Positions 24,432-26,596 of a stretch of DNA of 64,000 nt are shown here, in pieces. Position numbers and translations under genes: made by a program. The stretch comes from a virus (Duplodnaviria > Caudoviricetes): positions 64,001 to 128,000 of the IMG/VR virus record IMGVR_UViG_3300025715_000009. One strand, 5' to 3'. Below the pieces are notes generated by a model. That model was not told the origin of the DNA. It ran no database searches and saw nothing but the letters and a program-made list of their open reading frames with translations. The stretch's first letter is position 1. Each line of letters begins with the position of its first letter.

Positions 24432-25046
24432 TTAGTACAAAATGTTCCAACTTTTTCTATGTATTGAACATAAACCATATTGATGTATAGCTTGTCTATG
24501 CTCTAATGTGCCATATCCTTTATGTTTAGCAAAACCATAATTTGGATATTTATCTTCCATTAAAATCATATATCTATCTCTTGCTACTTTAGCCATAATA
24601 GATGCTGCTGCTATTTCTTTATAAACATCCTCTCCTCTTACACAAGTTTCAAAATTAGAATTGTTTGGGAATGGATTCCAATTACCATCAAATATAATTT
24701 TATCAGCTTTTAGTCTCATTATAATTTTAAAAATAGCTTGTTTTTCTACATTTAATATACCATGTTTATCAATTTCATGTGATGAGATTAATTGTATATC
24801 AAAGTCAGCATACTTTGGTATCTCTTTAAATAACGCCTCTCTTTTTTTAGATGAGAGTTTTTTACTATCTTTTATGTCATTTAATAATGAGAGTGGAATA
24901 TCATCGTGTAGTATAACACCGCCTACACCTAATGGACCTGCTAAACTTCCCCTACTTTTTTAAATTCTCTCTTTTTAGCCCGAAGGCTAACCAACCTCGT
25001 CAAGCCCTAAAATCTTGAGATGGTGAACAAGAAAATCTTTTTCCAT
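24432..25046 (-). CDS. rnhB: Ribonuclease HII interrupted by a 36-nt coding gap (24954-24989); 192 aa if the gap is skipped
   Basis: GGAGG SD and ATG 25046: MEKDFLVHHLKILGLDEVG [gap] RGSLAGPLGVGGVILHD..IKDSKKLS..KRE..IIFDGN..IAAASIMAKVARD..YGFAKHKGYGT..IHRKSW; one frame throughout. Confidence 0.92.
24954..24992 (-). other. Candidate translational bypass element (take-off GGU, UAG, UUCG hairpin, landing AGU)
   Basis: GGT TAG CCT TCG GGC TAA AAA GAG AGA ATT TAA AAA AGT; stem TTAGCC/GGCTAA with cUUCGg loop. Confidence 0.75.
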
Positions 25047-25887
25047 AAATTTCCTCCAACTTTAAATAGTAATCTTCTATGTCCAACAAAAAAATAAATT
25101 CTTTTTGAATATTTTTGGCATAATTCTTTGCTGCTTTTTCTTTAGCTAAAATTTCTCCACTTTCTAATGCTTGTTTATACCAAAAATGAGAACTTTTTAT
25201 TTCAAAAAGATATTTATCTGTTTCAAAATCAACGAAATAATATCGTTCTTTATCATCAAGAATATATTTTATTCTTGGACCTTGCTTTACATTTAAATAT
25301 GCTTGTTCACATGATTTTATAAATTTTAATTCTTCAAATGATTTGTAAATTATTTTTTCATTAAAAATAGTAATATATTCTCCTGTTTTAAATGATGATG
25401 TTGATTTATATTGAACATGATCTTTATATATAGCTTTTTCAGATTGAAAATAATGTGAACCATATTTTTTTATCATTGTCTGTTTTATTTTATCTTGAGC
25501 TATTTTTGATCCTCCGCCGTTTTTAACACCATATTTTTTTAAACAAGTATCAACTATTTTATTTTTTACTGAATCTAATTGTGTAGTATTTTCAACACCA
25601 TATTTTATCATATTATTTTTTTTAATAATATTTTGAGTTTCTTTTAATTGACTTATGTTTTTAACACCATATTTTTGTATAGTTGATTCTATACGACTAC
25701 AATTAATACACAATTCATCAAATTTTGTTTTATAAAGTGTTTTTAATCTTGAATCAAATGTTTTTTTACATTTTTTACAAATACATTGAACCATTGTATT
25801 GCTGTTAATTTTTATACTATTAATATAATAACTGTGATTTAATTTTATTAAATCTTTTTTATTAAACATAATATTTCCTATATTCAA
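25000..25887 (-). mobile_element. Putative free-standing homing endonuclease (Zn ribbon, KYGV repeats, C-terminal PD-(D/E)xK/TnsA-like domain)
   Basis: CKKC..CINC; KYGV repeats; YFVDF..LFEIKS..K.AA; overlaps the rnhB 5' end by 47 bp. Confidence 0.7.
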
Positions 25888-26596
25888 ATATCGTCCCTCC
25901 TCATTAATACCTTATCTTTCTTAATTTATTATAAAATATACAAATCTTTATTTTTTTAACAAGATAAATATATGACACACCAAGATAAAATTAAAGAAGT
26001 TTTTACAAATTACGGCTATTTAATAATTGATGCTGTAGAGCCTGATGACCCAGATTTATTAAGTGATTTAAAAGATCTTAATATAAAATTAATTACATTG
26101 CCACACCCTCGTTTTATTGAAATAAAACTTGTTGGGTGTTATTCAGACATAAAACAAATTTTATCTATCCATTGGTTTCCACATGAAGGTGCTGAATTAG
26201 AAGAAACGATGGAAACTTTTATTAAATATTGAGAGGTAATATGACACCAGAAGAATTTTCAGTGAAATTAATTTTTGACTTACAAGGTGAAGAGCCATGG
26301 GTGGATAATATTCCAGATAAATTATTTTTTTTAAGCAAAAAAATACCTGGATCTAATTATTTTTGTCGTTTATTAAGAGAGTATAAAAAATTAGGAGAAT
26401 TTAATAAATCAGCAGCAGAATATGGTTTTAAAGAAGAGAAAAAAGGAAACCAATTATATCTAATTACAGATGATGGATCGATTATTCATTTTTTTGCCAT
26501 GGATAAAAGATATGAACCAGTAGTAAATAAGTTAAATTATATATTTAATCTTGATATGTTAGATCCAACATATGCGGAATTCTTTGAGGAGGAAGG

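Follow-up and report, generated by a model that had tools for sequence, protein, structure and literature searches.

Our analysis concerns the ribonuclease (RNase) HII gene rnhB of a phage represented by the IMG/VR virus record IMGVR_UViG_3300025715_000009 (388,268 bp, 98% complete according to CheckV), of which bases 64001-128000, a stretch of 64,000 nucleotides (nt) hereafter called the window, were analyzed. Near its 5' end, rnhB is interrupted by a 36-nt gap filled with stop codons, and directly upstream lies a gene for a homing-type nuclease, the 3' end of which overlaps the start of rnhB. In our favored reading, which we give a probability of about 0.58, a homing-type nuclease cassette brought rnhB both a new 5' end and a translational bypass insert of the type known from gene 60 of phage T4. 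Related contigs compared with the window are labeled L109 to L150, and G000:C1 denotes the full phage genome record. The features on which this reading is built are as follows.

25053..25057, minus strand: Shine-Dalgarno sequence GGAGG of rnhB, located inside the nuclease open reading frame (ORF), from the sequence
24990..25046, minus strand: rnhB coding part 1, 19 codons, with a 9-codon N-terminal extension followed by LKILGLDEVG, from comparison with the gap-less L116 and L117
24990..25019, minus strand: stretch with homology to codons 1-10 of native rnhB, equivalent to the "homR" of the MobA element
24990..24992, minus strand: putative take-off codon GGT, encoding Gly19 in DEVG; each of the four gap-bearing rnhB alleles has GGT here
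24954..24989, minus strand: coding gap of 36 nt with in-frame TAG, TAA, and TAA, not in the 98%-identical L116
24975..24990, minus strand: take-off hairpin with a 6-bp stem that includes TAG and a UUCG loop, from RNA folding
24967..24971, minus strand: GAGAG, which may act as an internal mini-Shine-Dalgarno sequence, separated from the landing triplet by 10 nt
24954..24956, minus strand: putative landing triplet AGT, sharing two of three positions with the GGT take-off codon, from allele comparison
24432..24953, minus strand: rnhB coding part 2, 173 codons plus stop, starting from the RG of the GRG motif, from Pfam RNase_HII
24954..25951, minus strand: whole block that replaces 42 nt of L116 (L116 177-218), with borders from blastn

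The ATG of rnhB is at 25046, and the stop codon of the nuclease falls 47 nt inside the gene. Part 1 reads MEKDFLVHHLKILGLDEVG and is followed by TAG, while beyond the gap the frame picks up again at RGSLAGP and stays open as far as the stop at 24432, this second part matching Pfam RNase_HII (PF01351) with an E value of 2.5e-26. The catalytic motif DE-x-G-[RK]-G is restored only by skipping exactly 36 nt. The insert splits it as DEVG/RG, in agreement with a preliminary description of this DNA, which had placed the gap in the most conserved codons of rnhB and whose positional statements all proved correct (the nuclease ORF, the 47-nt overlap, the rnhB Shine-Dalgarno sequence within the nuclease gene, and the 10 nt from the nuclease stop to the beginning of the gap). 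The native ATG of the gap-less relatives is replaced by CTC in the window, and apart from this change the homR-like stretch shows two synonymous differences from L116. Since neither a second RNase HII gene nor an RNase HI gene was found in the phage genome, rnhB is its sole RNase H gene. The ratio of nonsynonymous to synonymous substitutions (dN/dS) of part 2 is 0.08-0.24 against relatives and 0.62 against the most distant allele, L124, for which dS is saturated; because cassettes move between lineages, the low values cannot date selection to the time after the arrival of the gap.

The signals at the 5' border of the gap are those of gene 60. The GGT codon is directly followed by a stop (GGT-TAG at 24992-24987), in keeping with gene 60-type bypass, for which a stop or a very rare codon is required there, and the first 14 nt of the gap (24989-24976) are identical, at 14/14 positions, to those that open the 50-nt gap in gene 60 of T4 (AF158101). 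The hairpin stem, inside which the stop codon lies, is completed by the T and the A flanking this identity. The hairpin-plus-GGN pattern occurs once in the window, against 0.01 occurrences expected, and once in the whole genome. The gap's 3' portion (24975-24957) contains no GGN triplet, and its only bases other than A or T are the three G residues of GAGAG. When the whole region was folded as RNA, the energy was no better than that of shuffled sequences (z = 0.39), and only the local 6-bp hairpin stood out.

Comparison with the near-identical strain L116 outlines the cassette as a single unit. Homology to L116 stops at window position 25952 and resumes at 24955, the intervening block of about 1 kb consisting of the nuclease, the new rnhB 5' end, and the gap. 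Relative to L116, the nuclease, the N-terminal extension, and the gap are delimited as a single insert, as in a MobA-type cassette, the short homologous stretch being indistinguishable from native sequence. L116 lacks nuclease and gap together, in one block, so that the two features vary jointly between these strains. On the downstream side, 15 mismatches to L116 were counted, 14 of them within 333 nt of the block and 1 in the following 360 nt (Fisher p = 3e-4, or 0.005 if neighboring changes count as one); on the upstream side, 7 were found in 176 nt. The gradient of mismatches looks like a co-conversion tract and is as would be predicted if repair had transferred the whole block between near-identical strains or had led to its loss.

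Six close relatives of rnhB were identified by protein search and their contigs fetched, and a pattern scan of metagenomes provided one more allele. In L116, L117, L121, and L122, rnhB is uninterrupted, starts with MKILG.DE.G[RK]G, and has no nuclease upstream. L118 (80% identical) carries a 78%-identical nuclease in the same overlapping layout and a 24-nt gap with GGT as both take-off and landing codon. In L119/L120 (68% identical), no nuclease is present and the 29-nt gap ends with AGT as its landing triplet. The much more diverged L124 has a gap of 35 nt between matching GGT take-off and landing codons, and the 435 nt available upstream encode no nuclease. All four gap-bearing rnhB alleles share an identical 18-mer (GGT, hairpin, and A), whereas synonymous sites between them are saturated (dS of about 1) and their divergence extends from 80% protein identity down to a dN of about 0.5-0.6. 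Their upstream mini-exons all retain DEVG or DEAG (4/4), and both coding parts are intact and conserved. As the gaps (36, 24, 29, and 35 nt) differ in frame and each includes stops, the reading frame cannot be rescued by readthrough or by one frameshift; only a hop or an excision can do so.

The nuclease gene is preceded by its own AAGATAA element, and its ORF begins with a TTG at 25887, with GAGGAGG before it, and ends with the stop at 25002-25000. Its features are the following.

25000..25887, minus strand: free-standing homing-endonuclease-like gene, 295 amino acids (aa), from Pfam DUF7487, PHROG, and fold
About 25785-25699, minus strand: Cys-rich zinc ribbon within the 295-aa ORF
About 25692-25438, minus strand: four KYG repeats within the same ORF
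About 25386-25078, minus strand: C-terminal TnsA-like PD-(D/E)xK domain of the same ORF
25912..25918, minus strand: AAGATAA gene-start motif, 24 nt 5' of the start codon

The protein matches Pfam DUF7487 (E value of 2.5e-11) and two PHROG families, both annotated as homing endonucleases; a sequence search of the PDB gave no match, and no paper in the literature searched mentions DUF7487. An alignment with 16 homologues shows that E..D220..E229-x-K231 is kept in the C-terminal domain, so that the predicted active-site residues of the catalytic domain are intact. The AlphaFold model has a mean predicted local distance difference test score (pLDDT) of 85, and its top PDB matches in Foldseek are TnsA of Tn7 (1f1z and 1t0f; probability of 1.0, E value of only 0.015), followed by restriction-like nucleases of R2 elements and other PD-(D/E)xK proteins. 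Pfam TnsA-N or Vsr-like domains are present in some homologues. The nuclease type proposed in the preliminary description, PD-(D/E)xK, is supported because the E..D..ExK motif is conserved and the predicted fold resembles TnsA, and the KYG-type repeats and the separate AAGATAA element that it reported were likewise found.

The closest homologues of the nuclease (78, 55, 51, and 49% identity) are all located directly upstream of rnhB. The lineage occupies this position in five phage lineages (the window, L118, and L133 to L135) and is absent from L116, L117, L121, and L122, the sporadic presence typical of homing endonucleases, and judging from these neighborhoods it is clearly specific to rnhB. 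Four more DUF7487 paralogues are encoded in the genome (G000:C1:131458-132408, 221634-222686, 167596-168429, and about 363616-364098). The three that we inspected each abut or overlap the 5' end of another gene (two unknowns and one structural-looking protein of >780 aa), and the fourth sits in a tRNA region; no evident gap was seen in the genes neighboring these paralogues.

The AAGATAA motif occurs in 54 copies in the window, 16 of which lie within 40 nt upstream of an ORF start, where about 2 would be expected, mostly with a spacing of 3-5 nt to the start. Two example copies from the window scan are these.

25961-25967, plus strand: intergenic AAGATAA, kept in the relatives L116, L117, L119, L121, and L122
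23808-23814, plus strand: AAGATAA

In this phage, the motif may act as a promoter or as an element of translation start.

On these grounds, we propose that the nuclease gene brought rnhB its new 5' end, i.e., the Shine-Dalgarno sequence, the ATG, and the 9-codon extension, all of which overlap the nuclease 3' end, and that the same block ends with the T4 gene 60-type insert between the Gly and Arg codons of DEVG/RG. The ribosome would translate 19 codons and stall, its P site occupied by GGU and its A site by UAG, with the UUCG hairpin forming; the peptidyl-tRNA-Gly would then leave its codon, and the ribosome would slide across the A/U-rich remainder of the gap to land on its last triplet, AGU, with only two of three pairs. 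Translation would restart at AGG and yield an RNase HII of 192 aa. In a co-infection, the nuclease would cut cassette-less rnhB, and repair would copy in the nuclease, the extension, and the gap together. We infer that the gap interrupts the cleavage target in the carrier genome and would in this way provide immunity.

The same take-off module was found in other phage genes. By itself, the 14-nt hairpin is a terminator-like element that many viral contigs contain (>114 matches); the 18-mer led by GGT has 8 matches in viral contigs, 8/8 in bypass-like contexts, and 3 in cellular genomes, none of them bypass-like. It is therefore only the 18-mer beginning with GGT, and not the 14-nt hairpin alone, that is specific. 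Seven of the viral matches split a metallophosphoesterase gene between SDTHFG (SDLHLG in L126) and the next His codon, six of them with a 22-nt gap and a GGT landing codon and L126 with a 26-nt gap and a GGA landing codon, for which a single tRNA reading both codons is not clear. The Pfam assignment of these genes scores just below the curated cut-off. A protein-based scan added two phosphoesterase gap alleles with a UGCG loop (L140 and L149), giving L109, L126, L128 to L132, L140, and L149 as gap alleles, and identified five distinct gap-less alleles among L141 to L150. A further gene is interrupted in L127.

L127:10231-10254: GT9 glycosyltransferase gene split between GAFG and D by a 21-nt gap, with GGT take-off and GGC landing, from the 18-mer scan

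A single tRNA could read both codons in L118 and L124, where the pair is GGT/GGT, and in those phosphoesterase and GT9 alleles that have GGT/GGT or GGT/GGC. Compared with gap-less alleles, the gap-bearing rnhB alleles have 8-14 extra N-terminal residues; the phosphoesterase alleles L140 and L149 have none, and in some phosphoesterase gap alleles lacking an extension the nascent chain at take-off would have 11-13 residues.

As for accompanying nucleases, the gene directly upstream of the gapped phosphoesterase in L126, L129, and L130 encodes a protein of about 300 aa that has NUMOD3 motifs and a zinc ribbon. Within the phosphoesterase family it was seen only with the gap (3/9 gap alleles, 0/5 gap-less alleles). 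It has no significant sequence similarity to DUF7487, its C-terminal half has no Pfam match, and its predicted fold (pLDDT of 42) is unusable. The gene upstream of the GT9 gene in L127 encodes a GT2 glycosyltransferase and no nuclease. The suggestion made in the preliminary description that bypass hairpins are reusable across genes and nucleases gains support from the presence of the 18-mer in metallophosphoesterase and GT9 genes, sometimes behind the NUMOD3 protein. Of the gap alleles in these other genes, three follow the NUMOD3 protein, while six phosphoesterase alleles and the GT9 gene have no nuclease. We tentatively advance, with slightly less than even confidence, that the 18-nt module (GGU-UAG with its UUCG hairpin) is portable and stands in for an intron. 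Several unrelated families of homing nucleases would have placed it in invariant Gly codons near the 5' ends of topoisomerase, RNase HII, metallophosphoesterase, and GT9 genes, and it would work with gaps of 21-36 nt and nascent chains of 11-19 residues. If so, neither the nascent-peptide signal of T4 nor a strictly matched landing codon would be required.

Sequencing runs of several studies, on anaerobic digesters and on activated sludge, contain the same DNA. A metatranscriptome contig of 858 nt from activated sludge covers 24546-25403 unchanged, gap included, although DNA carry-over is not excluded; it is compatible with co-transcription of the nuclease 3' end with rnhB. None of the contigs listed over the locus has the joined, gap-less form. 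Contigs of three independent runs, from both DNA and RNA libraries, end within 25 nt of one another, at 24922-24947, just 3' of the gap, where the window and the gap-less L116 differ by single-nucleotide polymorphisms. These contig ends, and the stretches without cover that also occur, are no more than a hint that both strain types coexist in these samples. In the GenBank phage collection, neither the locus nor the phosphoesterase gap region has a DNA match, and tblastn against GenBank phages returned only distant rnhB genes (<46% identity), so that no cultured relative or host was found. Searches for related loci gave no match in viral contigs with a single protein and none in metagenome contigs with an alignment; the alignment-based search of viral contigs gave one 39% relative only.

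The phage genome has a G+C content of 29.7%, is predicted by ARAGORN to hold 59 tRNA genes, and itself encodes tRNA-Gly(GCC). A tRNA with anticodon CUA (amber suppressor, labeled Pyl) is predicted by ARAGORN at G000:C1:293264-293335, outside the window, and a few long frames in the genome have a single mid-ORF TAG. A reassignment of TAG was considered and rejected, as TAG terminates 58 of 437 long ORFs and the gap also has two TAA codons. Because of this use of TAG as a terminator, the genome, even with its CUA tRNA, is not broadly recoded.

Several observations weigh against bypassing in a nuclease-gap cassette. The putative AGT landing triplet is the main departure from the gene 60 rules of Manning and Atkins (bioRxiv 10.1101/2022.08.31.505936), since in the window and L119 the same tRNA would not read take-off and landing codons (GGT versus AGT). 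GGG and GGA triplets a few nt past AGT would pair better with tRNA-Gly, and landing on them would lead to a stop after 3 codons or to a protein without the RG of GRG. There is no mini-Shine-Dalgarno sequence at the canonical 5-7 nt, the GAGAG being 10 nt upstream of the landing triplet; the preprint describes one exception, with GAGG 12 nt upstream of the landing codon (bioRxiv 10.1101/2022.08.31.505936). The nascent chain at take-off is only 19 aa long and has no likeness to the nascent-peptide signal of T4, and the CUA-anticodon tRNA of the phage could read UAG and compete with take-off. Moreover, since the insert was recently gained or lost relative to L116, the intact downstream ORF alone is no proof of function. 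As regards the cassette, the 49-55% identical nucleases of L133, L134, and L135 overlap the start of a gap-less rnhB, so that not every carrier of the nuclease has the bypass, and a gap without nuclease is found in two rnhB alleles and six phosphoesterase alleles. Among the rnhB alleles, two have nuclease and gap, three the nuclease only, two the gap only, and four neither (Fisher p = 1). The co-inheritance of nuclease and gap that the preliminary description had proposed is thus loose, and the gap today is neither required by the nuclease nor dependent on it.

This distribution gives weight to a different explanation, in which the DUF7487 protein is an rnhB homing endonuclease guarded by target-site polymorphisms and the bypass insert is a separate element, older or separately mobile, the two being adjacent by coincidence or by hitch-hiking in one tract. 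Such independence would account for the nuclease without gap in L133 to L135, for the gap without nuclease in L119/L120, L124, six phosphoesterase contigs, and one GT9 contig, and for the lack of a statistical association. At the site of the window gap, L134:1020-1050 reads DEAG-V-G and L135:920-950 reads DEAG-I-G instead of the near-universal G-[RK]-G, and GVG and GIG may be target-site variation giving immunity, a possible other route of protection. Nevertheless, nuclease (78% identity) and gap occur together, arranged alike, in the window and L118, L116 lacks the two jointly within one tract of raised divergence, and the nuclease of the phosphoesterase family occurs only with the gap. Published MobA elements form a decay series in which the nuclease is lost and the bypass kept, the nuclease without bypass not being shown (bioRxiv 10.1101/2022.08.31.505936), so that gap-only alleles are expected from decay. 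We therefore deem two independent elements unlikely, if the most serious of the alternatives.

It is still less probable that rnhB was recently inactivated, the stop-filled insert being poorly bypassed since its landing codon decayed to AGT and the intact frame reflecting recency only. The mismatch of AGT to the GGT take-off codon, the divergence of only about 2% from the gap-less L116, and the tRNA(CUA) suppressor that could read UAG all fit this view, and a phage whose host provides RNase HII may have no need of its own. On the other hand, the much more diverged L119, which also has AGT, retains both coding parts intact and conserved, the hairpin is perfectly kept across alleles with a dS of about 1, DEVG or DEAG persists in every gap-bearing mini-exon, rnhB is the only RNase H gene of the genome, and considerable latitude in landing-site pairing has been reported (bioRxiv 10.1101/2022.08.31.505936). 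Removal of the insert from the RNA, as a micro-intron or by processing and ligation with no ribosome hop, would make the AGT triplet irrelevant, and gap lengths varying over all three frames fit excision as well as hopping. We consider it very improbable, as the inserts have no intron-like structure and no bacterial mechanism is known for inserts of 21-36 nt, and as the hairpin is identical to that of a T4 element which is annotated as a translational bypass region in the T4 record and reported to be bypassed. The RNA-library contig, in which the gap is retained and the joined form is not seen, argues only weakly in the same direction, given that contigs drop rare forms.

The nearest known counterpart of the locus is the T4 gene 60/MobA element (Bonocora 2011), and the proposal that the locus is an analogue of it is supported as to the architecture, the homology of the take-off signal, and the block difference from L116. 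It is weakened as to strict co-inheritance, in view of L133 to L135 and the gap-only alleles, and the mismatched AGT landing triplet makes it more doubtful. In both systems a Gly take-off codon is followed by UAG and an identical 14-nt UUCG hairpin, the insert lies in an invariant Gly of a catalytic motif, and the nuclease is located just upstream with its 3' end overlapping, out of frame, a new N-terminal extension of the target. Both also have a short element-borne stretch homologous to the target, near-identical relatives without the whole block, and decayed forms with the bypass only. They differ in the target (rnhB here, topoisomerase II there), in the nuclease (a DUF7487, TnsA-like PD-(D/E)xK protein here, HNH there), in the gap (36 nt with a mismatched AGT landing triplet here, 50 nt in T4), and in the nascent chain (19 aa without a T4-like peptide signal here, 46 aa in T4). 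Furthermore, the nuclease studied here sits in the upstream intergenic region, so that the target is not split into two proteins and there is no C-terminal extension, and its relatives also occur without the gap.

The combination of bypass with another nuclease family is already published for topoisomerase genes. In the literature searched, gene 60-type bypass cassettes are described only in topoisomerase II genes, the preprint, the one comparative study found in that literature, stating that the element is exclusive to Topo2L, and in metagenomic clades 9-11 of the Topo2L bypass cassettes MobA is replaced by GIY-YIG or VSR nucleases (Manning and Atkins 2022, bioRxiv 10.1101/2022.08.31.505936). 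Like our locus, those cassettes show nucleases of unrelated families in combination with the bypass insert; they are confined to the same topoisomerase site, whereas here both the gene and the nuclease family are new. What is new is thus rnhB as the host gene and DUF7487 as the nuclease family of a gene 60-type cassette. In collaborative homing by F-CphI at cyanophage psbA, a free-standing nuclease lies beside a target gene whose interruption would protect the carrier, as proposed here, although the protecting insert there is a self-splicing group I intron and here a 36-nt hairpin insert without splicing apparatus. Short non-coding inserts in conserved genes, with hopping proposed or shown, are also found in the terminase gene of Streptomyces phage Hau3, where a UUA-mediated bypass spans 10 nt (PMC10732093), and in the byp elements of Magnusiomyces mitochondria; these differ from our locus in their signals (a hungry UUA codon, no UUCG hairpin), have no sequence homology with it, and have no described link to a nuclease.

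Gene 60 bypassing is the textbook extreme of translational recoding. If our reading is correct, the element would be modular and transferable, given that rnhB and two more gene families have the same take-off hairpin, with other nuclease types. Its natural variants, with their short gaps and UGCG loops, their mismatched landing triplets, and nascent chains of very few residues, would allow tests of which T4 signals are needed and bear on where the bypass element came from. For annotation, stop-filled inserts in catalytic motifs beside homing nucleases should not be called pseudogenes by default.

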